From positions 1 through 64,000 of IMG/VR virus record IMGVR_UViG_3300007067_000087: a stretch of 64,000 nucleotides of DNA; one strand, 5' to 3'. A model generated the notes under the pieces. That model was not told the origin of the DNA. It did not search any database and worked only from the letters and a program-made list of their open reading frames with translations. A program made the translations under genes and the position numbers. How positions within the stretch are numbered: position 1 is the first letter of the stretch; every line of letters begins with the position of its first letter. Positions 3,750 through 20,833 of the stretch are shown piece by piece. The stretch is from a virus (Duplodnaviria; Caudoviricetes).

Positions 3750-4396
3750 TGACTAATCGGCCAAGGATGCCGCTTAAACCCGGGCGGGTCAATCTTCGTA
3801 AAATCCGTAAAAAACTACCCAAGGATGAGCGCGATGATTTTCCTAAATCTGTTGCTGTACCGATTGACCCCACCTATCCGCGTGAGGGAGGCAACGGCAA
3901 TCAAGCCATGCACGATGAGCAGCAGGTTGCCCGTGTTGAATTGCTGATGCTGAAAGGTATCCGTACACCGCATCAATTGATGACGCTGCTTGATATTACC
4001 AGCCCAAATTTGATAGCAACCTATATCCGCCGTGTGCATGCAAGGTGGGAGATTGGCGGCTCAACCCGTGAATTTACCCGCCATCGCGGCGAAGCATTAA
4101 CAAGATTGGATTTGCTGGAAAGTGAAATGTGGTCAAAATTGAGCAATCTGGATGAAAAGGTCAGCCCGCAAATCACCCTCAATTACCTCAATGCGATTTT
4201 AAACGTGCAAACACGCCGCAATGATATTCTGGGGCTGACGGCTAAAGTTATCCAGCATATCGGTCTAACCACTAATGACCCAGAATTAGCCAAGAGGGCA
4301 GGAGACCATGAAGTCTTGACCAAGGTCGTCTCGCGCCTGTTTGAGCGGATTGAAAACCGTGCCAAGGTAATTGAGCATGAATCCTCAAGCACCTAA
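3749..4396 (+). CDS. Putative terminase small subunit
   Basis: Position immediately before TerL, helical, HTH-like segment GIRTPHQLMTLLDIT. Confidence 0.5.
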   Translation: MTNRPRMPLKPGRVNLRKIRKKLPKDERDDFPKSVAVPIDPTYPREGGNGNQAMHDEQQVARVELLMLKGIRTPHQLMTLLDITSPNLIATYIRRVHARWEIGGSTREFTRHRGEALTRLDLLESEMWSKLSNLDEKVSPQITLNYLNAILNVQTRRNDILGLTAKVIQHIGLTTNDPELAKRAGDHEVLTKVVSRLFERIENRAKVIEHESSST

Positions 4397-6329
4397 ACGG
4401 AAATATCGGCGTGTTGTCAAACGTAAACCCGAGCCAGAACCTCAAACCCGCACTGTCTTGACAACACATGATTTTGACCAGATTGCCGATGAGATTTTGA
4501 CAGAAATTGCCGCTGATTACCCAGAAGAAATTGATCTGGTTATGTCCTTTATCAAACAGGCGGCACATGATCCCGAAGCTATTAAAAATGTTTTGAAATA
4601 TAAGCACAAACCGGTTTCCCCTCGTGAATTTGTTGAGGGTAAAGCCTACATGGACAAGAAAGGCGTATTATGGCCCTCTGTCATGGATGCGCTGATCGAG
4701 ATTAATAATGGTAGCTATATTGAAGCCGTCTTGACCGGTGGTATCGGGGTGGCAAAAACCACCATTGCCCTCTATTCTCAAGCCTACCAGCTTTATCTGA
4801 TTTCCTGTTTACGTGACCCACATACCGAATTTGGTCTTGATCCATCATCAGAAATTGAAATTGTTTTCCAGTCCTTGAATGAAAGTTTGGCAAAGGGCAT
4901 TGATTATGAACGTTTTCGCGGGATGATTGAGTCTGCGCCTTATTTTCAGGCACATTTTCCGTTCGACAACTCTGTTTTGTCTTCTATGCGCTTTCCCAAC
5001 AAGGTTATTGTCAAACCGGTATCAGGCATGTCAACTGCAACCATTGGCGCAAATGTCATTGGTGGGGTGATTGATGAAATCAACTATATGGCCGTTACCG
5101 AAAACTCCAAGATGAATAGGGATGGCGGTACCTATGATCAAGCCATTGCCAATTATAATTCAATAGCAAGACGGCGGGAAAGTCGCTTTATGCAATTAGG
5201 GACATTACCGGGGATGTTATGCCTTGTTTCTTCGCGCAATTACCCGGGACAATTTACAGATACCAAGGAAGTAGAGGCCAGAACCAATCCGCGCATTTAT
5301 GTCTATGACAAATGTTTGTGGGAGTTACAGCCCGATAGGTTTTGTGGGGAGATATTTACGGTCTTTACCGGTGATGAAACCAGAAAACCGCGTCTATTGC
5401 GTGAAGATGAAACTGTTGCCCCACAAGATGAACAACTGATTAAATCTATACCGATTGAATATCGTCCGACATTTGAGAGTGACTTACTCAATGCGCTGCG
5501 AGAGATTGCCGGTGTTTCCACCCATGCTCTGCATCCCTTTATGGTTAATACCGAGGCTGTCGCCGCAGCTTTTGGCAAGACCCGCTCTATCCTGTCGCGT
5601 GAGGATTGCGACTTCGTGAATAGCCGTGTGCAGATTTATCCCAACTTCATCAGCCACAAGCAAGAGCCGCGTCATGTCCATATTGACTTGGCCTATGCTA
5701 AAGACAGTGCTGGTATTGCCGTTGGTCATGTATTCAAATTCATCGAGGTTAACCGTGGCGACCATGTAGAGACATTGCCCCTTATCCAGCTTGATTGCAT
5801 CTTGGAAGTGCAAGTGCCACCGGGTGGGGAAATTGACTTTTCCAATATTCGCCGTCTGCTCTATGCCTTGCGGGATAAAGCGCATCTACCGATTAAATGG
5901 GTAAGCTTTGACGGGTTTCAAAGTCGTGACTCAATGCAGATCTTGTACCAGCAAGGTTTCTCTGTCGGTTATCAATCAATGGATACAGACACCGAAGCCT
6001 ATGACATTACCAAACAGGCCATTTATGACGGTAGATTGCTCGCCCCTGAACATGCTAAAGCGCAACATGAGATGGTAACATTGGAAATTGATGTCAAACG
6101 CAAGAAAATTGACCACCCACCCCACTCATCCAAGGATGTTTCAGATGCTATCGCTGGTGCGGTGCGTGGCTTGACGGTGCGGCGTGAAATCTGGGCAAGG
6201 CATGGTGTTTCCCCGCACAGGATACCGGTCAATCTGCGGCAAGCGGCAGAACCAAAGAGCGCAACCCGTGTTCAAGAATATAATGATACGGAAATAGAAC
6301 TCGGCCATGACTGGCTGCAAACCGCGTAA
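4377..6329 (+). CDS. terL: Terminase large subunit
   Basis: Walker A-like TGGIGVAKTT, Walker B GGVIDEIN, RNase H-like HIDLAYAKD and DVSDAIAG. Confidence 0.85.
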   Translation: MNPQAPKRKYRRVVKRKPEPEPQTRTVLTTHDFDQIADEILTEIAADYPEEIDLVMSFIKQAAHDPEAIKNVLKYKHKPVSPREFVEGKAYMDKKGVLWPSVMDALIEINNGSYIEAVLTGGIGVAKTTIALYSQAYQLYLISCLRDPHTEFGLDPSSEIEIVFQSLNESLAKGIDYERFRGMIESAPYFQAHFPFDNSVLSSMRFPNKVIVKPVSGMSTATIGANVIGGVIDEINYMAVTENSKMNRDGGTYDQAIANYNSIARRRESRFMQLGTLPGMLCLVSSRNYPGQFTDTKEVEARTNPRIYVYDKCLWELQPDRFCGEIFTVFTGDETRKPRLLREDETVAPQDEQLIKSIPIEYRPTFESDLLNALREIAGVSTHALHPFMVNTEAVAAAFGKTRSILSREDCDFVNSRVQIYPNFISHKQEPRHVHIDLAYAKDSAGIAVGHVFKFIEVNRGDHVETLPLIQLDCILEVQVPPGGEIDFSNIRRLLYALRDKAHLPIKWVSFDGFQSRDSMQILYQQGFSVGYQSMDTDTEAYDITKQAIYDGRLLAPEHAKAQHEMVTLEIDVKRKKIDHPPHSSKDVSDAIAGAVRGLTVRREIWARHGVSPHRIPVNLRQAAEPKSATRVQEYNDTEIELGHDWLQTA

Positions 6330-6337
6330 AATTTACA

Positions 6338-6351
6338 TGCAATTGATTGCA
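6338..6351. promoter_or_regulatory. Palindrome site
   Basis: TGCAATTGATTGCA after terL stop. Confidence 0.75.
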
Positions 6352-6444
6352 GATGAATTTTACTTGACATGAAATGTCATCGGCGTAGACTCTTACCATA
6401 ACAATATAAAAGTGGGATTATCCTCACTAAAAGGAGTAAAGACC

Positions 6445-6792
6445 ATGGCAACGGTAAAGGTCACCTCAAAGGGGCAAATTACAATTCCGGCTCATATTCG
6501 TCATGAAATGCGGTTGATTGCAGGTGATAAGCTTGAGCTGGTGTGGATGGATGACGGGAGTTATACTCTTGTGCCGCTAACATATTCTGTTAAAGACTTA
6601 AAGGGAATCGTTCCATCTATTGGTAAACAGGTAACTCTTGAAGATATGCAAGAAGCGATTATTGCCGGATCTTTAGGGCAAGAATTGACCCCGAATGAAT
6701 TTACAGCCGAAATTTTAGAAAAAAGTGACAAGGATGAAGATTTACATTACTTTGATAGTGCCGAAGCAATGTTTAATAATTTGAATATTTAG
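6445..6792 (+). CDS. AbrB/MazE/SpoVT-family antitoxin-like protein with a RelB/DinJ-like tail
   Basis: KVTSKGQITIPAHIR...AGDKL; tail PNEFTAEILE...FDSAEAMFNNL; AGGAG SD before ATG 6445. Confidence 0.8.
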   Translation: MATVKVTSKGQITIPAHIRHEMRLIAGDKLELVWMDDGSYTLVPLTYSVKDLKGIVPSIGKQVTLEDMQEAIIAGSLGQELTPNEFTAEILEKSDKDEDLHYFDSAEAMFNNLNI

Positions 6793-6819
6793 GCTAAAAT
6801 CTGTGGAGGGACGCACGCT

Positions 6820-7011
6820 ATGACTGCAAATCCTATTGTAAAAACAGATGTAGATACAGAACCGGTAGAATCTGTCTTAGACAGAAAACCCTTTATCCCA
6901 AATGCTGTGACCATAGCCGCTATGGAGGAAGCCCGCCAAGGGAATGTACAGAGTTTCGACAGTATAGATGCCTTGATGGATAGCCTGAACTCTGAGGATG
7001 ATGAGCAATGA
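6820..7011 (+). CDS. Short RelB/DinJ-like antitoxin fragment
   Basis: PNAVTIAAMEEARQGNVQSFDSIDALMDSL is a typical DinJ/RelB C-terminus. Confidence 0.6.
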   Translation: MTANPIVKTDVDTEPVESVLDRKPFIPNAVTIAAMEEARQGNVQSFDSIDALMDSLNSEDDEQ

Positions 7012-7203
7012 CAACGACTTTATCCCCCTTAGTTTCAGAGTTTGAAACGGTTGAGCAAGAAGAAAGCTACAATGAGTGGTTACGAGCCAAGGTAGCGGCT
7101 AATCTTGCTGCCCTCGTCCCGCAAGTGTCCCCATGATGAGGTGATGGCAGAAATGGAAGGTCTCATTTCCCAAATGGAAAAGAAATACGCTAAAGCAGGA
7201 TGA
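7008..7203 (+). pseudogene. Frameshifted StbD/RelB-type antitoxin
   Basis: MTTTLSPLVSEFETVEQEESYNEWLRAKVAANLA stops at TGA 7134; HDEVMAEMEGLISQMEKKYAKAG continues in another frame from 7132 to TGA 7203. Confidence 0.75.
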
Positions 7204-7207
7204 AGTC

Positions 7208-7491
7208 GTGTTGCCTAATATCTGGCGTGAGGAGGCTCGTAGTGATTTGCGGCAAATTATCCGATATATTGCCAATGAGAATCCCGCAGCGGTGCGGCGT
7301 GTAAAACAGCGGATAGAGAATGCCGTATTACCCGTCTCAGAGCACCCCTATATGTACCGGATGAGCGAGCGTGTCCCCGGACTTAGGGAGGTTATTGCGC
7401 ACCCCAATTATATTGTATTTTATCGTGTTACAGAAAGAGGGTTGAGGTCGTTAATATCGTCCATGCTCGCAGGGAATTTCCCACGGAATAA
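7208..7491 (+). pseudogene. relE: RelE/ParE toxin, frameshifted near the C-terminus
   Basis: IWREEARSDL...PGLREVIAHPNYIVFYRV; the expected ending VEVVNIVHARREFPTE* lies in a shifted frame from 7441 (GGG run 7439-7441). Confidence 0.75.
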
Positions 7492-7511
7492 AATTTCCCC
7501 CTCTAAAATAT

Positions 7512-7525
7512 TGCAATTGATTTCG
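7512..7525. promoter_or_regulatory. Palindrome variant
   Basis: TGCAATTGATTTCG before PPDK-like gene. Confidence 0.65.
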
Positions 7526-7599
7526 TTTTTGTGTTGTTCATCTACGTCTTTCTGGTAAGATTTAGTGATAATGATTTCACTTAATCCAAGGAGGGATGA

Positions 7600-9600
7600 A
7601 TGTACGGCAAACGTATTTTCCTATTCGGTGACAAAGATAATTGTGACTGGCAAGGCTCTTATGACGAAGCCAAAAAGCTACTTGGTGGCAAGGGTGCAGG
7701 GCTGGTTGAAATGGTCAAGGCAGGGCTTCCTGTCCCACCGGGTTTTACCATCACCACCACAACCTGCAATGAATATCTTGCATTGCCTGAGAATGAACGA
7801 GCCAACTTTATCAAGCAATTGATGGTTGAGGTTTTGGCCTTTGACGAACGTCTGAAATGGGCTTATGGTACGGATTACTCTCCACTTGTCAGTGTTCGTT
7901 CCGGGGCATCGGTGTCAATGCCCGGTATGATGGACACAATCTTGAATATCGGCCTGACAACGGGTAGTTTTCCTGTTTGGGCGAACAGATTGGGAGAAAG
8001 AGCAGCATGGGACAGTTATCGCCGTCTTATCCAGATGTTGGGTTCAACCGCTTACAATATTCCCCATAACAAATTTGAAGAAATCTTGAGCGGTGTTAAA
8101 AATACCGCACAGGTGAGTTCTGATACGGATTTATTAATTGGCGAGTTACAAATCGCCTCTTATCATTATACGGAGCTTTTTAAGAAAAGTGTAGGAGCAG
8201 AATTTCCAGACAGTCGTGAAGAACAACTGGCTGCCGCAATCAGGGCTGTTTTTGACAGTTGGGAAAACCCAAGAGCTATTGAATATCGCAAGATCAATAA
8301 TATTGATTCAGCCATAGGAACGGCCGTCACTGTTCAGGCTATGGTGTTCGGCAATATGAATGAACAAAGCGGTTCAGGCGTGGCTTTCACCCGCAACCCG
8401 TTGACGGGAGAGAAAAAGCTGCTTGGTGAATATCTCCCCAATGCACAAGGAGAAGATGTTGTCGCAGGTATCAGAACCCCGATTGATGTCCGCGCTTACA
8501 TTGCAGATCATAATCCGTCTTGGGCAGATGAATTTTGGCAGCTTGAGAACATCTTGGAGGGCATGTATAAAGACATGGTGGATTTTGAGTTTACCGTGCA
8601 AGACAACAAACTCTACATCCTGCAAGCGCGTGTAGGAAAAAGATCAGCACAATCGGCTTTTACCATCGCCATTGATTTAGTAGAAGAACAGGTCATTGAT
8701 GAACAGACAGCTTTAAGCCGATTAACAAAAGCACAATTCAAAACATTACGCCGTCCACGCATTGATGATGCTTTCAAGGAACTCCCACATTATCAAGGTT
8801 TAGCGGCTTGCCCCGGCATTGTCAGCGGCATACCGGTTTTTAGTTCACAATCTGCAATTGATTGCAACAAGCCTTGTGTTTTGATCACAGAAGAAACAAC
8901 GCCTGATGATATTACTGGCATGAATGCTGCTGTTGGTATTCTTACCCGCACCGGTGGGGCAACCAGTCATGCCGCTGTTGTGGCAAGAGCGATGGATAAA
9001 GTCTGTATTGTTGGCTGTACTGATCTTGATTTTGAAGCCCTCAAAAATGCCAAGCAGATTACATTGGACGGCAGTACTGGTCGGGTATGGATTGATACGG
9101 ATGTTCCCGTCATTGATAGCTCCGACAGCAAGTTGATCAAAACCGTTCAAGAATGGAGTTTTAAGAACACGAATTACGACCTCAGCACCCCGGCCTATGT
9201 TGAAACCGAGCATGACCAGATCATATCTGCCGCTTATTGGTGGGGGCAAGAAGAGGTGTTGGAAGCCGTATTGAGTGATTTATGTGGCAAATCTAATCTC
9301 GGTGATGTTATTTTTGACATAAAATCAAAACGCCATTTCCTCAATGAAGCCGATACGTTGCTTTATGATTGCTCCAATTTTGATGAAGCAAAAGACTTTT
9401 CTAAAACTATTATCAAACAATTAAAGTCAAAGGCCAAACACTTAAAGGGACTGTATTTGGTGGATACGGATTTTGAACCTGACAGCAAGCAAGAAAAAAC
9501 TTTGTTGGATGCTGGTTATCAAATGCTTGCCTCGAATAAAACCAGTTTACGCCGTGCCGTTAATGCTGATACAGCCGCCTTTATTGCCTTATCTGCTTGA
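7600..9600 (+). CDS. PPDK-like dikinase: ATP-grasp plus phospho-His swivel domain, lacking the PEP/pyruvate TIM barrel
   Basis: LLGGKGAGL, VSVRSGA.VSMPGMMDTILN, AQGEDVVAGIRTP, GGATSHAAVVAR; only about 165 aa follow the His domain. Confidence 0.9.
   Translation: MYGKRIFLFGDKDNCDWQGSYDEAKKLLGGKGAGLVEMVKAGLPVPPGFTITTTTCNEYLALPENERANFIKQLMVEVLAFDERLKWAYGTDYSPLVSVRSGASVSMPGMMDTILNIGLTTGSFPVWANRLGERAAWDSYRRLIQMLGSTAYNIPHNKFEEILSGVKNTAQVSSDTDLLIGELQIASYHYTELFKKSVGAEFPDSREEQLAAAIRAVFDSWENPRAIEYRKINNIDSAIGTAVTVQAMVFGNMNEQSGSGVAFTRNPLTGEKKLLGEYLPNAQGEDVVAGIRTPIDVRAYIADHNPSWADEFWQLENILEGMYKDMVDFEFTVQDNKLYILQARVGKRSAQSAFTIAIDLVEEQVIDEQTALSRLTKAQFKTLRRPRIDDAFKELPHYQGLAACPGIVSGIPVFSSQSAIDCNKPCVLITEETTPDDITGMNAAVGILTRTGGATSHAAVVARAMDKVCIVGCTDLDFEALKNAKQITLDGSTGRVWIDTDVPVIDSSDSKLIKTVQEWSFKNTNYDLSTPAYVETEHDQIISAAYWWGQEEVLEAVLSDLCGKSNLGDVIFDIKSKRHFLNEADTLLYDCSNFDEAKDFSKTIIKQLKSKAKHLKGLYLVDTDFEPDSKQEKTLLDAGYQMLASNKTSLRRAVNADTAAFIALSA
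8853..8866. promoter_or_regulatory. Palindrome site (intragenic)
   Basis: TGCAATTGATTGCA in PPDK-like gene. Confidence 0.65.
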
Positions 9601-9641
9601 TGTATAAGAATTTAATTTCAACTCAAAATGAGGGCGAATAA

Positions 9642-9932
9642 ATGGCTTTGGTTTTATCCATCAAGCAAGGACATGATTTCTACATTGGTGACATACGCTA
9701 TTCAATAGAGGCTGTACAACCTGATGGTTGTACTTTACACCAGCATGGAGAAATGCAAGACAAATTTTTTGATGTCACTTGCGATAAAGTAACGGAGGTT
9801 GCCCCGCAAATCTTTATCCGTGCTGGACTGGCATCCCGTAAGGGAGAGGTCAGCCTCGACATCAAAGCTCCTAAAAATATTCTCATTTTACGCGGGGGTA
9901 TAATGAACGCACATCCAAACCAACAAGTCTGA
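9642..9932 (+). CDS. CsrA/RsmA-like small protein with an internal insertion
   Basis: N-terminal LVLSIKQGHDFYIG and C-terminal EVSLDIKAPKNILILR resemble CsrA LVLTRkvGEsIvIG / VriGIeAPkevsIhR. Confidence 0.45.
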   Translation: MALVLSIKQGHDFYIGDIRYSIEAVQPDGCTLHQHGEMQDKFFDVTCDKVTEVAPQIFIRAGLASRKGEVSLDIKAPKNILILRGGIMNAHPNQQV

Positions 9933-9967
9933 ACATGCGCTCATTGCATTAACAACAATCTTGCCCG

Positions 9968-10132
9968 CTAGCTGGCTTTCTTGCCGTTATCGTTGTTCGC
10001 GGAAACAGGGATAGGAAATGCCCTTATTCCATATTGTTTCGCATAGATCACTTTACCGTTTGGCAAGGTGATTGACGTACGAAAAATAAAATCTTTCCCT
10101 TTTTTAGGAGAAGTTTTGTCTTTTTTAGCCAT
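9968..10132 (-). CDS. 54-aa basic small protein (below the ORF-track cutoff)
   Basis: MAKKDKTSPKKGKDFIFRTSITLPNGKVIYAKQYGIRAFPIPVSANNDNGKKAS*, AAGGA SD about 8 nt upstream on the - strand. Confidence 0.7.
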   Translation of the reverse strand: MAKKDKTSPKKGKDFIFRTSITLPNGKVIYAKQYGIRAFPIPVSANNDNGKKAS

Positions 10133-10155
10133 AGAAAATTCCTTTTAGGCTATTG

Positions 10156-10216
10156 ACCGACACCTTCCCGACAAGTAGAAAAGGATTGTTGTTGTCTACT
10201 TGTGGTGGGTGTCGGT
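10156..10216. ncRNA. Long interrupted stem-loop (candidate sRNA or leader)
   Basis: ACCGACACC 10156-64 pairs with GGTGTCGGT 10208-16; ACAAGTAGA 10171-79 pairs with TCTACTTGT 10195-203. Confidence 0.4.
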
Positions 10217-10255
10217 TCTGTTTCAATAGAACTTATGTCCTACAGGTAAATCCCC

Positions 10256-10288
10256 AAGCCCTCTGCACGCCAATGCAGGGGGCTTTTT
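10256..10288 (+). terminator. Rho-independent terminator
   Basis: AAGCCCTCTGCA-cgccaa-TGCAGGGGGCTT followed by T run. Confidence 0.75.
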
Positions 10289-10324
10289 GATTCGCAGTCG
10301 TATATTAAAGTCTATCTTCGCAAG

Positions 10325-10340
10325 ACTCAATAATTTGAGT
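10325..10340. promoter_or_regulatory. Palindromic operator candidate in a divergent promoter region
   Basis: ACTCAA-taat-TTGAGT between the small - strand ORF and the wHTH gene at 10441. Confidence 0.35.
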
Positions 10341-10440
10341 TCTAAAATAAGACTTATTAACGAGAAACACACAATAAATTTGAATAAATTATGATTTCAT
10401 GATAGATTTGAGTTTATATTATTCATTATGAGGTGATTGA

Positions 10441-10914
10441 GTGGCTCATGATATTGATAGAATGGTGACTGAACGAAAAAGGCTATTAAAGCAAAAGGCT
10501 ATCATTGAGGAACGTTTGAGTATTATTGAGGGCATACTTGCCTTGAATAAAAAACTTGAAAATGCTCCAGCCGTTTATTTTGGTGATAATTTCTCTGAAT
10601 TTTCAATCGTAGGAAGAGGTAGGAAAAGACCCCGAGGTGTATTACCCCCGTCAGAAATCGTGACCAATGTTCGTGAATTGCTCATAGAAGCCGGTAGGCC
10701 GATGAACCGGCGTGAATTACTTAAAGAGCTTGAGAGGCGGAATATACCTGTCATAGGAAAAGACCGCGCAAAAGTTGTCGGTACAATCGTTTGGCGAGCT
10801 AAAGAGCCAGATGGCTCGCCCTCCTTTATTAATACAGAGAAAGGTTATTGGCCGTCTGACATTCCTTTACCATCAGTACAATCAACACAAACAACAGGAA
10901 ATAAAAATGAATAA
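10441..10914 (+). CDS. Coiled-coil plus winged-helix hypothetical protein
   Basis: N-terminal heptads; VRELLIEAGRPMNRRELLKEL...KGYW is wHTH-like. Confidence 0.5.
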   Translation: MAHDIDRMVTERKRLLKQKAIIEERLSIIEGILALNKKLENAPAVYFGDNFSEFSIVGRGRKRPRGVLPPSEIVTNVRELLIEAGRPMNRRELLKELERRNIPVIGKDRAKVVGTIVWRAKEPDGSPSFINTEKGYWPSDIPLPSVQSTQTTGNKNE

Positions 10915-11401
10915 ATTGAAACCAAATGGACAATTTGAACTAAATTTGGGCTGGAAGAGAGCGGGCATTACATTGGATATAACGGGTGGGCCTTATGATG
11001 CTTATCCCGGCCAACCCTATTTGGGGGTCTGTGTGCGGGCAGAACAGACAGCGGGACGGCTCATGGATGTACATCTACCGATTGATGATTTTTCTGTTCC
11101 CCGACACGATGATGAAGTACTGAAAGCCCTTGAAAAGACAATCCGCGCTGGTCTGGCGGGCAGGAAAATCTATATTGGGTGTATGGGTGGATGGGGACGC
11201 ACGGGGTTATTTATGGCTCTGCTTGTCAAGGCGTTAGGTGTAGAAGAACCGGTGAGTTTCATCCGCCAACATTATACGCCCCGTGCCGTTGAGACCAAGG
11301 AACAGCAATTCTATGTCAAGAATTTTGATGTGTCTCCCATCAGCCGCAATTTGTGGAAGTGGGCTTGGAAAGCAAGACTGTTCTCATTTTTTAGAAAATA
11401 A
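10907..11401 (+). CDS. CX5R protein-tyrosine/dual-specificity phosphatase-like protein 1
   Basis: LPIDDFSVP (general-acid loop), IYIGCMGGWGRTG, AVETKEQ. Confidence 0.85.
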   Translation: MNKLKPNGQFELNLGWKRAGITLDITGGPYDAYPGQPYLGVCVRAEQTAGRLMDVHLPIDDFSVPRHDDEVLKALEKTIRAGLAGRKIYIGCMGGWGRTGLFMALLVKALGVEEPVSFIRQHYTPRAVETKEQQFYVKNFDVSPISRNLWKWAWKARLFSFFRK

Positions 11402-11403
11402 TT

Positions 11404-11417
11404 TGCAATTGATTGCG
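11404..11417. promoter_or_regulatory. Palindrome variant
   Basis: TGCAATTGATTGCG after phosphatase 1 stop. Confidence 0.7.
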
Positions 11418-11487
11418 ATTTATTATTGTTCTTTGTTGTCTTTCCTTTAAGATTAAATCATATCCTTTAAAAACCATGGAGGGTTTG

Positions 11488-12552
11488 ATGTCTTTGGTTT
11501 CTCCTCGCAGCACACTTGATTTTCACCTTTCTCGCCCGTTGACTTGCTACCGTGACATGAGCCAAGTACCGTTAAAGACGTTTATCAAGAAATTCCGTAG
11601 CTGCCTAAGTAAGGCTGACAAGGTTGCTCCAGAAACAGAGGCTTTGTGGTTTTATGGCTTAAATCATTGCCTAGCTATCATCCAGAGAAAATATGATCGT
11701 TTTGAGCCGATGGATGAAGAGGATGTCAATTTTGTTGATGATTATTACAACATCCTGTCAGAGAAAGCTGTGCGAGCATTTTATTATCTGGTTGCGATTT
11801 GTGTACGAGAAGTTCGGCACAACAAATCTTCGATTGATGATCTGGAAAAAATGATAGAGTTATTTGGAGAGGATACTGCTAAATGGTTCTCCAAAATCGA
11901 GAATGAAAAACAAATTCTTGAACGTTTTACGAAAGAGCCACCCGATACCAGTCTCGGGCATTTCTTTGAATGTATCCGCTGGCAATTCTATAACAGCGTA
12001 TGGTTACAAGGCTATGGTGGCAAAGCATGGGGCAATGTCACCGATTGTTTATTGCGTTTTATCAAAGGAGAAACTTCAGCAGAAATTATGCTGGATACGG
12101 TCTGGACACTCTCGCACAATAACGGGCCGATATTTAACAAGGGGCATTTTTACAGTCAATATGGTAAAGCCTTACCTCGCATCCTTGATATTCAACGCTC
12201 CGGTCAGATACCGGAAGCCATTTTGTATGATAGTGTCATTGTCAGTTTCTACAACACTGAACTTTTGGTTAGAATTGCGAAATTTATAACACATAATCCT
12301 GATCACATTGGCGAATATGTTGATTGGTATAAAGTAGAAGCATTGGGTACTTTGCATAGTTATCCGCAAGAAAAAGGGGAACAGCTTGCCAAATATGGTA
12401 TGACAGAGAGCAACAAACAGTATCTATCTCAAGCTGAAAAACAGAAACAAATGGCTGAGCAACAAAAGATACAAGCACAAATTGAGTTTGAGAAAACCCA
12501 TTACACCATTATGCCTGGGATTCATGTCAAGAAATTTGAACGGGCAGCCTGA
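11488..12552 (+). CDS. Conserved-looking hypothetical phage protein
   Basis: Long ORF with GGAGG SD; motifs GYGGKAWGNVTD and LSHNNGPIFNKG. Confidence 0.55.
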   Translation: MSLVSPRSTLDFHLSRPLTCYRDMSQVPLKTFIKKFRSCLSKADKVAPETEALWFYGLNHCLAIIQRKYDRFEPMDEEDVNFVDDYYNILSEKAVRAFYYLVAICVREVRHNKSSIDDLEKMIELFGEDTAKWFSKIENEKQILERFTKEPPDTSLGHFFECIRWQFYNSVWLQGYGGKAWGNVTDCLLRFIKGETSAEIMLDTVWTLSHNNGPIFNKGHFYSQYGKALPRILDIQRSGQIPEAILYDSVIVSFYNTELLVRIAKFITHNPDHIGEYVDWYKVEALGTLHSYPQEKGEQLAKYGMTESNKQYLSQAEKQKQMAEQQKIQAQIEFEKTHYTIMPGIHVKKFERAA

Positions 12553-12563
12553 AGGAAACCCTC

Positions 12564-13229
12564 ATGAAACATAAGAATTTGAATGACGTTCTATATGGTG
12601 ATCGCGCCGACATTAGACACAACCGTGATGTAATTGATTTTGCAGAACAAGGAAAGCAACAAGAACGTTGTTATCACACCCACCCGCCCTTGAAACTGCC
12701 AAACAGTAAATTTGTCATTTATGGCGGCTCATGCAGTTCTCCGATTGTCAAGGACGCTGATATTTATATTGGCCTTTGCCATACGATGAAGCAGACGGAA
12801 AGGCGTTTCCCATGGGTGAAAGGTGAAGAGATTTATTTTCCCATCCCCGATATGAGTATCCCGAAAGACGTTGAGAATTTTAAAGCTCTTATCACATGGA
12901 CAAAGAAACAGATTGAGGCAGGTGCAAAAGTCCATGTTGGTTGTATCGGCGGACATGGGAGAACAGGGACATTTCTTGCCTCTCTTGTTAGTCTTTATGG
13001 TGAAAAAGATGCGATCCGTTATGTTCGTAAACATTATTGCCACAAGGCGGTTGAGTGTAAGCTACAGGTAGAGTTTTTAGGTCTGCATTTCGGAATAATA
13101 AACGCCGAGGGCTACAAGGACAAACAAGATCGCAAAAAATCTTTCAATTCCAGACAACAGCCTGTAACTAAAAAAGGCGCAAATTTAAAACTCATCACCC
13201 CTGTTCAAAGTGCTATGGCAATATGGTAA
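12564..13229 (+). CDS. CX5R protein-tyrosine/dual-specificity phosphatase-like protein 2
   Basis: FPIPDMSIP, VHVGCIGGHGRTG, AVECKLQ. Confidence 0.85.
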   Translation: MKHKNLNDVLYGDRADIRHNRDVIDFAEQGKQQERCYHTHPPLKLPNSKFVIYGGSCSSPIVKDADIYIGLCHTMKQTERRFPWVKGEEIYFPIPDMSIPKDVENFKALITWTKKQIEAGAKVHVGCIGGHGRTGTFLASLVSLYGEKDAIRYVRKHYCHKAVECKLQVEFLGLHFGIINAEGYKDKQDRKKSFNSRQQPVTKKGANLKLITPVQSAMAIW

Positions 13230-13234
13230 TAATT

Positions 13235-13248
13235 TGCAATTGATTGCA
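13235..13248. promoter_or_regulatory. Palindrome site
   Basis: TGCAATTGATTGCA after phosphatase 2 stop. Confidence 0.75.
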
Positions 13249-13312
13249 GATATAATATTGCGTCCCCACGATTAAAGGCTAAGATGAATAATACACCAAA
13301 ACGGCAAAAGAC

Positions 13313-13819
13313 ATGGAGGTTGAAATGCCGGTGACAATTATCAACAAGAACCAACCATCCCCCAAAATATGGGCGTTGAAAATGCTGCCCGTTAAGGACG
13401 TTTCAAGTGACATTCCTGCCTCCACGCTCTCCAATTTGTGGCCTGAATTTGATCGCAACCAGATGAAGACTGCACCTCTTGTCTGCTTAATTGAGGCAAC
13501 ACAAATGTATCAGCCTGTATCAGGCTCAACTGAGGGAAGTCGGTATTTCGTTGTTGCTGGCAATCAACGTTTAAAAGTCGCTGCCCGTTACCATAACAAA
13601 AGGCTGTCTTGTCGCTTGGAGGGAGAAGATTTGAACAAAAATTACACGCAAAAAGATTTGGGAGCGTTCAATATCAAAAGTGAAAATCATGCTTCGTTTC
13701 ATGCCGAGATTGATAATCTGAAACTGGCAGCAAAAACATTGGGGGCGGTATTGATGGATTTAAATCTTAGCTTTGAAACGCCAATTCCCAATTTTGATAT
13801 TATCAGGGCGGCATCATGA
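13313..13819 (+). CDS. Hypothetical phage protein
   Basis: ORF in operon context downstream of a palindrome and promoter. Confidence 0.5.
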   Translation: MEVEMPVTIINKNQPSPKIWALKMLPVKDVSSDIPASTLSNLWPEFDRNQMKTAPLVCLIEATQMYQPVSGSTEGSRYFVVAGNQRLKVAARYHNKRLSCRLEGEDLNKNYTQKDLGAFNIKSENHASFHAEIDNLKLAAKTLGAVLMDLNLSFETPIPNFDIIRAAS

Positions 13820-14022
13820 TGACTTTAGATGAATTTAAATCTCTGCAAATTGGCGACCAGTTGGAGCTTGAACCGTTATTGCCAAAGATTGATGATGAAC
13901 CCGTACTTTTGACCATGACCGGTAGCTACAAGAATCGCCGCAGCTTCATCGCCACCCTTTATGGTGTTCCCATGCGAACGGTTGAGGCAATTGAGATGGA
14001 AGGCAAGATCAGATGGATTTAG
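13816..14022 (+). CDS. Hypothetical protein
   Basis: Overlapping start/stop coupling with neighbours. Confidence 0.45.
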   Translation: MMTLDEFKSLQIGDQLELEPLLPKIDDEPVLLTMTGSYKNRRSFIATLYGVPMRTVEAIEMEGKIRWI

Positions 14023-14447
14023 TTTATAATGCTTTGTGTCAAGTAGCGGATATTCTACAAATCAAGTTCCAGTGGGATGAATACAATCTCAAAATCAAGA
14101 GCAAGGCTCGCCGCACCTTTCACCCCTCTGACCTCACCTTTTCTATGCCGCTTTCTTTCCCCTCAAGCCGCATTTTTGAAACGCGATTTCTAACCATCAT
14201 CCATCTCAAGGGAAAACTGGCTTTGCTGCTGGATGTACCGATTGAACTTTCTTCCTATTATACGATGTTGCATTTCTTTGATCTTGGCGCAACGGGTGAT
14301 CCTGAAAATTTTCTTGAGGGTATGAAATGTACGGATGAGCGTGATTGTATAGATCAACTCTTTCCTGCCATCGTCAAAAGCTTTTATTTTGATAGTGCTA
14401 CCGATATGTGGCAACCAGTGTCCCGATTGAGTGAGAAACAGGCATGA
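14013..14447 (+). CDS. Hypothetical protein
   Basis: Coupled to the DNA polymerase start (ATGA overlap). Confidence 0.45.
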   Translation: MDLVYNALCQVADILQIKFQWDEYNLKIKSKARRTFHPSDLTFSMPLSFPSSRIFETRFLTIIHLKGKLALLLDVPIELSSYYTMLHFFDLGATGDPENFLEGMKCTDERDCIDQLFPAIVKSFYFDSATDMWQPVSRLSEKQA

Positions 14448-16831
14448 TCATCATCTGGGCAGCCGCCGATGCGGGAGAATTGATCAAGGCTTATTCAAAA
14501 TCTTTCCGCAATTTTAAACCGGCTATTCCACCTCACCAATTCAAATCTTGGCAAGTCCAAGAAGAGCCGCCTATTCCCCAACAGGGACAGATTATTCTTG
14601 TTTGCGGGACAAAACCTTTAAATGTCCTACAAGCGCACGGCATTACCCCAAAGAACCGCAGTGTTTTCAGCATGCGGGAAAAACCGATCAAATATGGGGA
14701 CGGCTATTATCTTATCAGCTTCGATCCCAAAATCCTTAACTCCGAACCGGATAAAGTTGAACTGATTGATTGGGATTTACGCCTTGCAGTTCGCCTAATG
14801 CAGACCGGCACAACCATGCCGCCAATCGGCCATTATAAATATGTCAATGATTATCAGCCGATGATAGATAGCATTGAAGCCGAGTATGAACAAACCGGCA
14901 AACCGGTTGATGTTGCTTGCGACACCGAAACAATGGGCTTTTATCCTTGGTTGCCGGAGAAAGATATTGTCTCCATCAGCTTCACCAGAAAAGCAGGAAC
15001 AGCCGAAGTTTTGTATCTCAGTCAACAGTCAAAACCATTACCCTTTAAGCCTGATGTTAACCTGTTTGGGCAAATCAAATGGTTACTCACCTCCCCAAAG
15101 GTCAAGTTACGGTTGGCAAATGGTAAATATGATTTGATCTGGATCGCCGAGAAGTGGGGAATTGAATGCACCAACTTCAAATTTGATACGATGCTGGTCG
15201 GTTCGCTACTCAATGAAAATCAGTCAAACAGCCTCAATAATCATGCCAAAATTTATACGCCTTTAGGCGGGTACGATGATGGTTTCAATTCAACCTATGA
15301 TAAGGGTCGGATGGAGACAATCCCCGCTAAAGACGATTTCCTTACCTATAGCGGCGGTGATACGGATGCAACTTATCGCGTTGCCGATGTATTGCGGGAT
15401 CAGCTAGCTCAAGATGAACATTTAACAAAATTTTACCTGACAATCCTGCATCCCGCCGCCCGTGCCTTTGAGAAGATTGAACGGCGCGGCGTATTGGTTG
15501 ATCAACAGAAGTACCATCTCTTGCGGGGCGAATTACAGCAAGTTATTGACGAGGGAAATAATAAGGCTCTCTCCATTTTACCCAATAAGTTACGAGAAAA
15601 ATATCGTGACAAGATTGAAAGCCAGCTTGCGCAGGGCAAGAATCCACTGCTACCGTCAATCCTGAAAGATTTTTTCTTCTCTCCACGTGGCCTTAATCTG
15701 AAACCCAAAGTCTTCACCGGTAAGACTAACGAACCCTCAATGGCAAAATCGCATTTGAAACAATTTGCCAATATGCCAGAGGCTTCCGAAATGGTTGAGG
15801 CTTTGTCAGAAATTGATGCTGCCTCCAAAACCCTCTCAACTTTTGTTGAGGGATTCCTTAAACATTTAAGGCCAGATGGACGCTTCCACTCAACCTATTT
15901 TCTCGGCCATACGGCACAAGAAGGCTATGGTGGCGGCGATAGCGGCACGGTGACAGGCAGATTGTCCTGTAAAGACCCTGCCTTTCAAACTTTGCCGAAA
16001 AAGACCAAATGGGCAAAAAGACTGCGTGAATGTTTCATCGCTCCACCGGATAAAGCCATTGTGTCACTTGATTATTCTCAAGGAGAATTACGGGTAGTGG
16101 CCTGTGTCGCGCCAGAACCAACCATGATCAAAGCCTATGAACAATGGCTTGATCTGCATGCCGTTACGGGGGCGAAACTCGGCAATGTTGATTTGCAGGA
16201 ATTTTTATCGTGGGAGAATAGCACAAATGAGGATTTGAAAGAACTGTTCAAGGAATACAGAACCAAGGCCAAACCAGCTAATTTTGGTCTCCTGTACGGT
16301 ATGCAGACCCAAGGCTTTATTGCCTATGCGTGGGCGAATTATGGACTAAAACTTTCAGAACAGGAGGCCTATAAAATCCGCAATGATTTTTTCACCCTCT
16401 ATAGCGGCTTGACAAAATATCATGAAAAACAGAAGATGCGGGTTAACAACCAAGAAATGGTACGTAGCCCGCTAGGACGTATCCGCCACCTACCAATGAT
16501 CAAATCGTGGGATAATGCGATACAATCCCGTGCCGAGAGACAAGCGATAAACTCTCCTATCCAATCCTGCCTTTCCGACATGATGCTGTGGGCAATTGCT
16601 CTGATTGAGCAAGAATACGGAGAGCATGTGGATATTGTCGGTACAGTGCACGACAACCTGATCGCCTATGTACCAGCGCAAGATGTAAATCTTTGGGCAA
16701 AAAGATTGGTCGAAATTATGGAAAACCTGCCTTTCCATGAATTGGGTTGGCAACCCCAACTTAAATTCATTGCTGATGCCGAGGCTGGTCTTAATTTGGC
16801 CGATATGGAGAAAGTCAAATTCAACGTTTGA
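14444..16831 (+). CDS. polA: Phage family A DNA polymerase with 3'-5' exonuclease and a degenerate UDG-like N-terminus
   Basis: Exo I DTETMG, Exo II NGKYD, Exo III YSGGDTD; motif A DYSQGELR, B KPANFGLLYG, C TVHDNL. Confidence 0.92.
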   Translation: MIIIWAAADAGELIKAYSKSFRNFKPAIPPHQFKSWQVQEEPPIPQQGQIILVCGTKPLNVLQAHGITPKNRSVFSMREKPIKYGDGYYLISFDPKILNSEPDKVELIDWDLRLAVRLMQTGTTMPPIGHYKYVNDYQPMIDSIEAEYEQTGKPVDVACDTETMGFYPWLPEKDIVSISFTRKAGTAEVLYLSQQSKPLPFKPDVNLFGQIKWLLTSPKVKLRLANGKYDLIWIAEKWGIECTNFKFDTMLVGSLLNENQSNSLNNHAKIYTPLGGYDDGFNSTYDKGRMETIPAKDDFLTYSGGDTDATYRVADVLRDQLAQDEHLTKFYLTILHPAARAFEKIERRGVLVDQQKYHLLRGELQQVIDEGNNKALSILPNKLREKYRDKIESQLAQGKNPLLPSILKDFFFSPRGLNLKPKVFTGKTNEPSMAKSHLKQFANMPEASEMVEALSEIDAASKTLSTFVEGFLKHLRPDGRFHSTYFLGHTAQEGYGGGDSGTVTGRLSCKDPAFQTLPKKTKWAKRLRECFIAPPDKAIVSLDYSQGELRVVACVAPEPTMIKAYEQWLDLHAVTGAKLGNVDLQEFLSWENSTNEDLKELFKEYRTKAKPANFGLLYGMQTQGFIAYAWANYGLKLSEQEAYKIRNDFFTLYSGLTKYHEKQKMRVNNQEMVRSPLGRIRHLPMIKSWDNAIQSRAERQAINSPIQSCLSDMMLWAIALIEQEYGEHVDIVGTVHDNLIAYVPAQDVNLWAKRLVEIMENLPFHELGWQPQLKFIADAEAGLNLADMEKVKFNV

Positions 16832-16869
16832 ATTGAGACTTCAAATCTTGCTGTAAATGTGTCATATTA

Positions 16870-16889
16870 ATTTGCAATTAATTGCAAAT
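16870..16889. promoter_or_regulatory. Perfect 20-bp palindrome
   Basis: ATTTGCAATTAATTGCAAAT before portal. Confidence 0.8.
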
Positions 16890-16910
16890 TATTTAAAAGA
16901 GGCAATTCCT

Positions 16911-18632
16911 ATGGCTGATATACCAGATAAAGAACATCTGAAACCCCGCACTGCCCGCATTATCCAACTGGAAAACAAACTTGCGAAAAGTGCGGCTAAA
17001 TCTAACAACTCCATTCAAAGTAACACCTCAACCGTAGAGGATGAATTTTCTGGATTTTATGGAGAGGGTACAACGGATGGCTGGCAAGTTATCAAACCAC
17101 CTTTTGATTTACGTCAGCTTGACCGCATGCCACAGGAGAACAACGCCTTGATGCCTTGTATTGAAGCATTGGTGACGAATATTGACGGCACTGGGTATGA
17201 CTTTGAAGTTAAGGGTGATAGGGCAGAAGACAAAGCTGACATGGAGTTCATAAAGCAGATAGAAGAGTTCTTTGATGAGCCTTGGCCGGGCATGTCCTTT
17301 ACCACCATCCGCAAAAATATTCGCCGTGATATTGAGAAATTGGGCAATGGTTTTATTGAAGTTATCCGTAATCCGCAGGATGAAATTGTCTTCCTGAATT
17401 ATATGGATGCCAAGCTGACAAGACTGGTTAAATATGATGCCCCCATTCTTGTTGAGCAAACAGTACGCCGTAACGGTCAAGATATTACCATCAACCTGTC
17501 AAAGCGGGAACGGCGTTTCTGCCAAATCATTAATGGTAATCAACTCACCTATTTCAAGGAATTTGGTGCATCGCGTGATTTAAACAAACATACCGGCAAA
17601 TGGGCAGAAGTGGGAGAACGTCTCCCTGCTAAAGAAAGAGCCACAGAAGTTTTACATTTTACTGCCGTACCCGATACCAATACGCCTTACGGTATCCCGC
17701 GCTGGATTGGGCAAACACCCTCCGTCTTAGGTTCTCGTAAGGCCGAGGAATATAACCTTGATTTCTTTGATAATGGCGGTGTTCCTCCCGTACTTATCCT
17801 GTTGCAGGGTGGGCAACTCCAGCCCGAAACCAACAAAGCCCTTGATATGAAGATGAACGGAGGTTCAGCCACTTCACGCAATCGGGTACAAGTTCTTGAG
17901 ATCATGCCAACTGATGGCACATTTGATCGTCCGTCATCTTCGCGGGTGACGGTTGAACGGTTCGGGGCGGAACGCCAGAATGACTCTATGTTTGAAAAAT
18001 ATGATGAGAAGTGCGAAATTCGTGTTCGCCGTGCTTTTCGTCTGCCGCCTATCTTTGTTGGTGCGGCCAATGATTATTCATTTGCCAGTGCTGCTGCTTC
18101 ATATCAGGTCGCCGAAGCGCAAGTCTTCAAACCAGAACGTGATGAATTTGACGAAATCATCAATGTGACTTTGATGAAAGAGCTTGCCCCTGATTATAAA
18201 TTTGTTTCCAAGCCACTTGTGATTGAAGATGCCACTTTGAAACTTCGCGCTATTGAACTGGCTGTGGGCATTGGTGGGGCAGAAAAGGAAGATGCCATCT
18301 ATGAAATCAATGAAGCGGCGGGGACGAATATCAAATATGCTGGCCCTCAAAATGAGATGGTAACAGAAGCTGGAGTTGATCCTGAAAATATCGCCACTTT
18401 GGAAGAAGAAGCTCCAAGCCCGCCATCAGAAAATGAACCTGTCGGGGCTGGATACACCACAACCATTAAAGCCGCTTGCGGTCAACCCCTCAATTACGAT
18501 GATATTCCCGCACTTCGTTTCGGTTTACGCCATCATGGTGACAAGGACTTAAGCGCACTCACCAAGGCCACCATGCAAGTAATGAGTAAGGCCAAAAAGC
18601 TGAATGTGAGGTGTGATTGTGGCTCGCATTAA
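16911..18632 (+). CDS. Phage portal protein
   Basis: YGIPRWIG, FFDNGGVP, VRRAFRLPP.FVG...DYSFASA are portal-like; follows a palindrome and precedes MuF. Confidence 0.85.
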   Translation: MADIPDKEHLKPRTARIIQLENKLAKSAAKSNNSIQSNTSTVEDEFSGFYGEGTTDGWQVIKPPFDLRQLDRMPQENNALMPCIEALVTNIDGTGYDFEVKGDRAEDKADMEFIKQIEEFFDEPWPGMSFTTIRKNIRRDIEKLGNGFIEVIRNPQDEIVFLNYMDAKLTRLVKYDAPILVEQTVRRNGQDITINLSKRERRFCQIINGNQLTYFKEFGASRDLNKHTGKWAEVGERLPAKERATEVLHFTAVPDTNTPYGIPRWIGQTPSVLGSRKAEEYNLDFFDNGGVPPVLILLQGGQLQPETNKALDMKMNGGSATSRNRVQVLEIMPTDGTFDRPSSSRVTVERFGAERQNDSMFEKYDEKCEIRVRRAFRLPPIFVGAANDYSFASAAASYQVAEAQVFKPERDEFDEIINVTLMKELAPDYKFVSKPLVIEDATLKLRAIELAVGIGGAEKEDAIYEINEAAGTNIKYAGPQNEMVTEAGVDPENIATLEEEAPSPPSENEPVGAGYTTTIKAACGQPLNYDDIPALRFGLRHHGDKDLSALTKATMQVMSKAKKLNVRCDCGSH

Positions 18633-20806: not shown

Positions 20807-20833
20807 TATGCCGTCATCCGTATGGAGATAATA

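Follow-up and report, generated by a model that had tools for sequence, protein, structure and literature searches.

The described enzymes closest to the system considered here couple an ATP-grasp nucleotide-binding domain to a swivelling domain that carries a catalytic His. In pyruvate phosphate dikinase (PPDK; EC 2.7.9.1; Flaveria, 5JVN; C. symbiosum, 1KBL and 1DIK) and phosphoenolpyruvate (PEP) synthase, the β-phosphate of ATP goes onto the swivel His; the third domain of PPDK is the PEP/pyruvate TIM barrel. Rifampin phosphotransferase (RPH), phenylphosphate synthase and flavonoid phosphate synthetase are precedents for the combination of the ATP-grasp and swivel-His domains with a different acceptor domain, and phenylphosphate synthase is also split into separate subunits. 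In plant starch, the glucan water dikinases (GWD and PWD) write phosphate, and SEX4 and LSF2 erase it at different positions. To our knowledge, GWD with SEX4 and LSF2 is the only known case of a His-swivel dikinase paired with two dual-specificity phosphatases (DSPs) of different position specificity. Here, we describe a gene set in the DNA of a tailed virus, found in a 64-kb stretch (the window hereafter) of a 77-kb provirus record that is 77% complete (IMG/VR record IMGVR_UViG_3300007067_000087, positions 1 to 64,000). The set is composed of a PPDK-like dikinase, a protein without an assigned function (X hereafter), and two Cys-based phosphatases of the protein tyrosine phosphatase (PTP) type, which flank X and are referred to as PTP1 and PTP2 (Table 1). 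On balance, we favor the reading that these proteins constitute one ATP-driven phosphotransfer system, in which the dikinase is split into two polypeptides and is accompanied by hydrolases.

The dikinase has the ATP-grasp domain and the swivelling phospho-His domain with GGxTSHAAVVAR in common with PPDK. It matches the Pfam families PPDK_N (E 4.6e-46) and PEP-utilizers (E 3.7e-23), its SVRSGASVSMPGMMDTIL motif aligns with PPDKs, and the swivelling domain (residues 424–494) carries GGATSHAAVVAR at about residues 452–463, with the His at about residue 457. Judged by these matches, the nucleotide-binding domain and the catalytic-His domain of PPDK are both present. The two enzymes differ in the C-terminal part. 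The PPDK entries in the PDB, which were matched at E values of 1e-115 to 1e-121, align from residue 4 of the dikinase and stop at residues 477–527 of 666 (5jvn, E 6.6e-121, residues 4–501 only). The PEP/pyruvate TIM barrel was not found, and no Pfam domain was detected over residues 530–666. In place of the barrel stand the C-terminal 140–170 aa, which show a mean column identity of 27% (alignment A2) and end in a conserved tail, P.DYA.F..L; the region of residues 505–666 has 3 word-sharing relatives only, including the window's own protein. X, the likely third domain, has its own gene in the window and forms one protein with the dikinase in other lineages.

The resemblance to the plant starch cycle is of another kind. 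Both sets comprise a His-swivel dikinase and two CX5R dual-specificity phosphatases, and the plant cycle is transient and acts on a non-protein substrate. The phage set differs in that it has no match to a carbohydrate-binding module, in that the homology is at the superfamily level only, and in its domain order and acceptor domain. GWD–SEX4–LSF2 may thus be regarded as the closest functional precedent by analogy, not as a family to which the phage set belongs.

The placement of X on the acceptor side of the dikinase comes from natural fusions. The motifs of X in the window (ExRH, YGGKAWG, SHNNGPIFNK, and LDxQR) belong to a core of about 150 residues, written more generally as ExRH, YGG(K/P)xWG, HNxGxxF(N/T)K, and LDx(K/Q)R. 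Longer homologues of X with a fused partner did not turn up in a word-based search and were recovered through motif scans. In a 95-kb viral contig of a different backbone (L066), one 692-aa protein consists of an ATP-grasp segment, a His-domain segment, and the X core (EVRH, YGGKAWG, HNNAVFFNK), and is followed by a PTP gene; an SNF2 helicase gene lies upstream and a primase-helicase gene downstream. No relative of this protein besides itself was found in the phage collection or IMG/VR. Six proteins of 776–943 aa from metagenome-assembled genomes (MAGs; 5 of Candidatus Obscuribacterales and 1 of Gammaproteobacteria) likewise carry PPDK_N, PEP-utilizers (GGxTSHAAVVAR), and a C-terminal X core, and the next gene in 4 of these loci encodes a CX5R protein with AVE(T/S)xxQ or a motif close to it (5 of the 7 fusion loci when L066 is included). 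The Obscuribacterales copies have ordinary-looking neighbours, such as genes for a TPR protein and a HAD hydrolase, and no phage or replication genes nearby. In the gammaproteobacterial copy (L150, 8068–10814), three pilin genes of the type IV secretion system (T4SS) are found directly downstream of the fused dikinase–X and PTP genes, and this copy may ride on a conjugative element.

Since the order in the fusions is ATP-grasp, His, X, the X core sits where PPDK has its PEP/pyruvate barrel; the fused proteins pass from the His domain straight into the X core, without the 140–170-aa region of the stand-alone dikinase. Because X is fused to the dikinase, with a CX5R gene next in most of these loci, it is probably the acceptor-side domain of a split dikinase. 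This likely role of ORF 11488 had escaped the sequence-only reading. This order is not that of RPH, in which the substrate domain lies between the ATP-grasp and His domains. Moreover, RPH (5fbs, 5hv1) matches only the His domain of the dikinase (E 1e-7), and X is unrelated to it in sequence.

The sequence-only reading had proposed the co-occurrence of these genes as a check, and the outcome was strongly positive: the dikinase, X, and PTP form one co-conserved unit, and the fusions followed by a PTP gene confirm the link. All three components, i.e., the barrel-less dikinase, the X-core protein (ExRH, YGGxxWG, HNxG..F.K), and the CX5R phosphatase, are present in the window. Among the deposited phages, 40 records contain X and 58 contain the dikinase; 39 of the 40 X records also carry the dikinase, and the sole one without it is a 5.8-kb fragment. 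The cultured phages with the module include RcZahn, DLP3/DLP5, RHph_TM16, and SIO-2/VHS1-like phages. RcZahn (Rhodobacter) and DLP5 (Stenotrophomonas) are among those in which the dikinase gene is followed by small genes, then by PTP, X, PTP, and three small genes, and finally by the gene for family A DNA polymerase (PolA). A motif scan of IMG/VR with the X alignment provided 64 loci, whose gene order was read by tblastn. Sixty of them were canonical, showing the large terminase (TerL), dikinase, 96-aa, PTP1, X, PTP2, 260-aa, PolA, and portal genes wherever the contig reached, with X identities from 68% down to 27%. The scan with the X-core motif added 59 further loci with the block, which brings the total to about 120 viral contigs, and 8 prophage copies of the block were found in bacterial genomes. 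The SIO-2/D4-type Vibrio phages have an equivalent block with one PTP only, located 5′ of X. Since they keep the block in this form, the minimal set is the dikinase, PTP, X, the 260-aa protein, and PolA, and the second phosphatase is not essential.

X itself is known only as a family without an assigned function: it matches phrog_20946 (E 5e-77), and no Pfam family was found when the window protein and 40 homologues were scanned at E values up to 5. The word-based search gave 383 homologues, and the exhaustive search of a representative library gave 1762, 613 of which are at E < 1e-30. In the alignment of 40 homologues, 49 columns are invariant, and they are rich in Arg, His, Lys, Asp, Glu, Asn, and aromatic residues (Trp, Tyr, Phe). 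The AlphaFold (AF2) model is all-alpha (pLDDT 90.6), with a long helix and a hairpin at the C-terminus. From the invariant columns and the confident model, X looks like an enzyme, and the C-terminal helix and hairpin may have a docking role. The fold searches gave no described relative: the X profile found nothing better than E 0.08 among PDB sequences; the best Foldseek match of the model in the PDB was at E 0.15; VIA-align against 48,161 chains reached a Z of 4.3 at best, mostly over the C-terminal helix; BFVD returned only members of its own family; and the ESM Atlas gave no usable match. No DNA-binding, carbohydrate-binding-module, or glycosidase fold was detected in these searches.

The X core is also found apart from the canonical block. 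In one locus (L064, 8320–12633), an R2K-type ATP-grasp gene (Pfam R2K_2, E 5.5e-16), a gene for a 912-aa X-core protein, and one for a 156-aa DSP phosphatase stand in a row, and in two others (L065 and L143), the X core occurs with a PTP. It is further embedded in giant proteins of large viral contigs (681, 886, 1042, 1058, 1061, 1175, 1497, 1997, and >3178 aa; for example, L075 7521–13514, L077 4053–8546, and L093 6768–16301), one with ART-PolyVal and one with PcfJ. One 212-kb contig holds three copies (L076–L078). These proteins, of 680 to >3100 aa, recall the polyvalent proteins (Iyer et al. 2017, PMC5512222), whereas X in the window is a stand-alone protein of 354 aa in an operon-like block and matches no Pfam LPD family; the cited paper mentions neither a phosphatase nor a dikinase. 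As far as its sequence relatives indicate, X is a widespread, undescribed, phage-centred domain that is repeatedly accompanied by a CX5R phosphatase and, in many cases, by an ATP-grasp enzyme.

For the phosphatases, the earlier description of two paralogous PTP/DSP-like open reading frames around an unclassified gene, near a dikinase, was borne out by the coordinates, the Pfam and PHROG matches, and the identity between the two (40% over 102 aa, E 7e-22); the start of PTP1 lies 1.3 kb from the end of the dikinase gene. Each of them hits Pfam PTP-SAK and Tc-R-P with scores at or close to the curated thresholds, and phrog_17568 at E 1.5e-24 (PTP1) and 5e-29 (PTP2). PTP1 has the P-loop CMGGWGRTG, the acid loop PIDDFSVP, and AVETKEQ, and PTP2, which carries an N-terminal extension, has CIGGHGRTG, PIPDMSIP, and AVECKLQ, respectively. 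The nearest solved relatives of PTP2 are small archaeal-type PTPs (9e9l and 5z59, E 2.4e-7). With the small archaeal and bacterial PTPs (SsoPTP 2i6i, T. kodakarensis-type 5z59, and ShufPTP 9e9l), the phage proteins share the CX5R(T) P-loop, the D..xP acid loop, and AVE(T/S)xxQ; they differ in forming their own family, phrog_17568, with two ancient paralogue types, and in the N-terminal extension and invariant P-loop His of PTP2.

The catalytic residues were counted in 60 upstream-type and 60 downstream-type homologues. In the upstream type, the Cys, the Arg, and the Glu-Thr and Gln of AVETxxQ are invariant, and the acid Asp is present in 59 of 60, the odd row being an alignment gap. In the downstream type, the Cys and the acid Asp are invariant, and the Arg and the P-loop His are each present in 59 of 60, again with a gap in the odd row. 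For both clades together, the Cys is conserved in 120/120, the Arg in 119/120 (gap), and the acid Asp of the (I/T)xD(F/M)xxP loop in 119/120 (gap), while the Gln of AVE(T/S)xxQ is found in 59–60 of 60 per clade. The Asp would be the general acid and the Gln would serve the hydrolysis of the Cys-phosphate, roles that we take from the alignment to solved PTPs and general knowledge. Both proteins thus possess the C-X5-R(S/T) P-loop and the acid Asp and Gln of the Cys-based PTP/DSP superfamily, and from these intact catalytic sets they are inferred to be working hydrolases. The separate conservation of the two distinct P-loops suggests two different phospho-substrates. The two-phosphatase form is an old duplication with both copies intact, and the PTP1/PTP2 split is ancient. 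The label "thymidylate synthase" (thyX), which this family bears in GenBank and in PHROG 17568, is wrong, the protein being a PTP: the PTP2 orthologue of DLP5 (L002, 8999–9787) is named "thymidylate synthase thyX" in GenBank, and the true ThyX of DLP5 is encoded elsewhere. The mislabel has been carried over to further phage records.

Taken together, the sequence comparisons point to a dikinase of the swivel-His class whose acceptor domain is new and which has phosphatases of its own. The sequence-only reading had not recognized the set as a described system, and our literature search agrees with it: no paper describing a dikinase–X–PTP module was found, and the literature gives only genome announcements that annotate the parts separately. 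The following mechanism may be envisaged. The β-phosphate of ATP would be loaded onto the swivel His of the dikinase, as the chemistry of PPDK and PEP synthase suggests. The phospho-His domain would then dock on X, which, to judge from the fusions and the synteny, would replace the missing third domain. X would hand the phosphate to an acceptor held in the invariant polar pocket (ExRH, YGGKxWG, HNxG..F.K, LDxxR). Finally, PTP1 and PTP2, with their intact CX5R, Asp, and Gln motifs, would hydrolyse the phosphate from the product, or from two positions on it. The phosphorylation would be transient or would serve as an activation step. Our best guess for the acceptor is a hydroxyl on a non-protein substrate that is tied to phage DNA or nucleotide metabolism.

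Several points weigh against this mechanism. One is that the synteny comes in large part from a single phage lineage and may be due in part to common descent; the cases outside the lineage are the informative ones, because the synteny within it could be an inherited backbone. Another is that the R2K-type ATP-grasp gene of L064 comes without a His domain, and that no kinase was found near the X core in L065, L143, and the giant polyvalent-type proteins; from these contexts, the function of X might be independent of the dikinase. In addition, the acceptor-domain role of X is argued from fusion and position, with no recognizable fold or ligand site. The C-terminal region of the dikinase is viewed as a docking element of the split form because the fused forms go without it, and this role is a guess. 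The last point is that a kinase and a phosphatase acting on one site would make a futile cycle unless another step intervenes.

A more specific version of the split-dikinase explanation, which we put forward tentatively, is the hypermodification of DNA or nucleotides. Dikinase–X would place phosphate on a group of phage DNA or of a deoxynucleotide precursor to activate it, the PTPs would trim intermediates or canonical precursors, and the polymerase and variable sugar or acyl genes would complete a lineage-specific modification. The position of the module agrees with this: it is invariant, it stands beside PolA (in L066, between the helicase and primase-helicase genes mentioned above), and, unlike a variable accessory, it belongs to the core of an old lineage. 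The two PTPs have basic pI values (9.4–9.6), and RcZahn has sugar-nucleotide and glycosyltransferase genes beside the block. Furthermore, the DNA of two phages of the lineage is heavily modified: that of DLP3 resisted 15 of 15 restriction enzymes (PMC7326821), and that of DLP5 was cut by 4 of 36 (PMC5834331). Among the five lineage genomes searched, a ThyA-type hydroxymethylase, TGT/DpdA, and QueC were absent, and ThyX was present in two only. DLP3 and DLP5 encode no known modification pathway. The link is nevertheless circumstantial, since modified DNA is documented for DLP3 and DLP5 only, and other genes of these two phages (a glycosyltransferase, methyltransferases) could account for it. 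In RcZahn, the sugar-nucleotide enzymes and the glycosyltransferase are likewise candidate modification genes besides the module. The fused cassettes of Obscuribacterales, which have no phage or replication neighbours, and the failure to detect a DNA-binding fold in X also speak against it. In its boldest form, in which dikinase–X is a nucleic-acid- or deoxynucleotide-directed dikinase behind the unexplained DNA modification of the lineage X is a new-fold phosphotransfer domain acting on DNA, and the two phosphatases handle intermediates, the proposal is doubtful.

The sequence-only reading had suggested a writer/eraser module, which would here mean that a protein of the phage or the host is phosphorylated by dikinase–X, possibly at His, Arg, or Tyr, and dephosphorylated by the PTPs. 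Enzymes of the PTP fold classically act on phosphoproteins, and the swivel-His domain of PTS Enzyme I is able to phosphorylate a protein; Enzyme I chains are among the PDB matches of the dikinase. Small proteins are also encoded between the dikinase and PTP1 (96 and 157 aa; Table 1), one of them translationally coupled to PTP1. Against this, the module has no conserved companion protein that could be the substrate (the 157-aa protein is not kept in RcZahn, DLP5, or SIO-2), and X has enzyme-like invariant residues instead of a carrier-like single site. Besides, PPDK-family enzymes with altered acceptor domains, PTS Enzyme I aside, are known to act on small molecules or glucans. Nothing was found that points to protein substrates, and we consider this suggestion unlikely.

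Counter-defence or end-healing, in which the module inactivates nucleotide second messengers or repairs RNA or DNA ends cut by host nucleases, appears quite unlikely. In the end-healing version, the kinase would serve the 5′-OH and the phosphatases the 3′-phosphate or 2′,3′-cyclic phosphate; PTP-fold enzymes can indeed act on RNA 5′ ends. Four of the five lineage genomes searched, however, showed no DNA or RNA ligase: an ATP-dependent DNA ligase was found in DLP5 only and an RNA ligase in none (the window record being 77% complete). As for counter-defence, the X core occurs in polyvalent-type proteins with ART-PolyVal or PcfJ and, in one MAG, by the T4SS pilin genes, which are typical contexts of biological conflict (PMC5512222). 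The module is instead a fixed core block of the lineage, and no fold that binds a defence signal was recognized. The sequence-only reading had thought of kinase- or nucleotide-based host immunity as the target; we found nothing that points there, and an invariant core block beside the DNA polymerase is atypical of an accessory anti-defence gene.

A phosphorylation cycle on a polymer, i.e., a glycogen-like glucan or an envelope polysaccharide, through which host reserves are mobilised in infection, is in our view very unlikely. It is suggested by the GWD–SEX4–LSF2 precedent, by the many invariant Trp, Tyr, and Phe residues of X, which are reminiscent of sugar-binding sites, and by a weak match of the dikinase His domain to Pfam GWD1_pHisD (E 0.005). 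What disfavors it is that neither the Pfam scans of the dikinase, X, and the PTPs nor the fold searches of X revealed a carbohydrate-binding module or glycoside-hydrolase fold (a sugar-binding site of a novel kind could escape them), that the examined loci showed no gene for an amylase or a phosphorylase, and that the N-terminal 500 aa of the dikinase are far nearer to PPDK than to GWD. The remaining view, in which an auxiliary metabolic PPDK boosts glycolysis or gluconeogenesis of the host and its neighbours are unrelated, follows the published labels of a glycolytic PPDK (PMC9229204, PMC10141217) and the close sequence match of the first 500 residues to true PPDK, but it is contradicted by the missing pyruvate barrel, by the barely conserved region that replaces it, past the end of the PDB matches, and by the strict linkage, sometimes fusion, of the gene to X and PTP, and can be set aside as extremely improbable: as its domain content indicates, the gene is not that of a glycolytic PPDK.

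Table 1. Genes and palindrome copies in and around the dikinase–X–phosphatase block of the window
Feature	Position	Strand	Remarks
Large terminase (TerL)	4371–6329	+	
MazE-like antitoxin/ParE-like toxin pair	6412–7558	+	Between terminase and dikinase
Barrel-less PPDK-like dikinase, 666 aa	7600–9600	+	Pfam PPDK_N, PEP-utilizers
Conserved 96-aa protein 3′ of dikinase, weak CsrA-like C-terminal motif	9642–9932	+	
Basic 157-aa protein, pI 9.9	10441–10914	+	Translation; stop overlaps PTP1 start
PTP1, upstream-type CX5R phosphatase, 164 aa	10907–11401	+	
Palindrome copy TTGCAATTGATTGCG between PTP1 and X	11403–11417		
X, all-alpha protein, 354 aa	11488–12552	+	GGAGG Shine-Dalgarno site
PTP2, downstream-type CX5R phosphatase, 221 aa	12564–13229	+	
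Palindrome copy TTGCAATTGATTGCA	13234–13248		Followed by TATAAT
Member of the ~260-aa family, here 168 aa	13313–13819	+	phrog_25950
Two small overlapping genes, 68 and 144 aa	13816–14447	+	Lead into polymerase gene
Family A DNA polymerase with 3′-5′ exonuclease domain	14444–16831	+	Pfam DNA_pol_A, DNA_pol_A_exo1
Portal gene	From 16857	+	

The small genes of the block are conserved to different extents. The 96-aa protein is kept in most of the related loci, and its match to Pfam CsrA (E 1.5e-5; 4e-4 for the RcZahn homologue) is below the cut-off. The 157-aa gene overlaps PTP1 by 8 nt, an arrangement of translational coupling, and its product has a coiled coil, an AT-hook-like stretch (GRGRKRPRG), and a possible winged-helix end; we take the C-terminal part to resemble HARE-HTH/winged-helix domains, and the AT-hook resemblance is likewise our assumption. 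It has no match in Pfam, PHROG, or the PDB, and no conservation was found outside close relatives. The product encoded 3′ of PTP2 is N-terminally shortened and retains the C-terminal domain alone, as is also the case in the closest relative (L003); the family is about 260 aa everywhere else and is found 3′ of X or PTP2 in all members of the lineage, including the single-PTP Vibrio phages. A fold search with its AF2 model (pLDDT 89.5) gave generic alpha/beta matches only, with a best Z of 5.6. A likeness to the C-terminal domain of MotA had a Foldseek probability of 0.93 and an E value of 0.13, and was treated as uninformative. The 68-aa and 144-aa genes are conserved in part of the lineage, and the polymerase is the constant downstream neighbour of the module. 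The replicative-type family A polymerase and the whole dikinase block sit between TerL and the portal gene (4371–18632); this interval is an unusual site for replication genes and is conserved across the lineage. The MazE/ParE insertion has no counterpart at the same position in RcZahn. A Fic/DOC family protein (Fic_N and Fic) is encoded at 20822–21982, directly past the region of the MuF-like head protein. Among the public sequencing runs listed for the sequence, none was of RNA, and one DNA run contained a small share of its words.

The palindrome TTGCAATTGATTGCR, which the sequence-only reading had noted immediately after each phosphatase, is indeed present at both places, yet it is not specific to them. 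Its motif has 31 matches in the window against about 1 expected, and the extended form, (aATAATT)TGCAATTNATTGCA(AAT), has 22 sites in the 77-kb contig, nearly all intergenic (among them 6338, 11404, 13235, 16873, 22054, 27089, 31209, 34556, 51565, and 60326). Several sites lie directly upstream of sigma-70-like −35/−10 pairs, and two copies are intragenic (8853 and 41579). From this distribution, the palindrome looks like a general regulatory site used genome-wide, and it is probably the operator of a dimeric phage regulator that divides the genome into many units; PTP1, X–PTP2, and the genes downstream of them may each be under separate control.

The enzyme set described here occurs in clearly more than one hundred phage genomes, and several of these belong to cultured, genetically tractable phages. 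It is currently filed as a glycolytic auxiliary gene and "signalling" phosphatases. Once the acceptor is found, a new phosphorylation chemistry of phage infection would be defined, and a function would be at hand for a domain seen repeatedly in giant polyvalent phage proteins and also in Melainabacteria-like bacteria. The module could also explain the unidentified DNA modification of the lineage, and a DNA-directed dikinase–X, if true, would amount to a new chemistry for modifying phage DNA.

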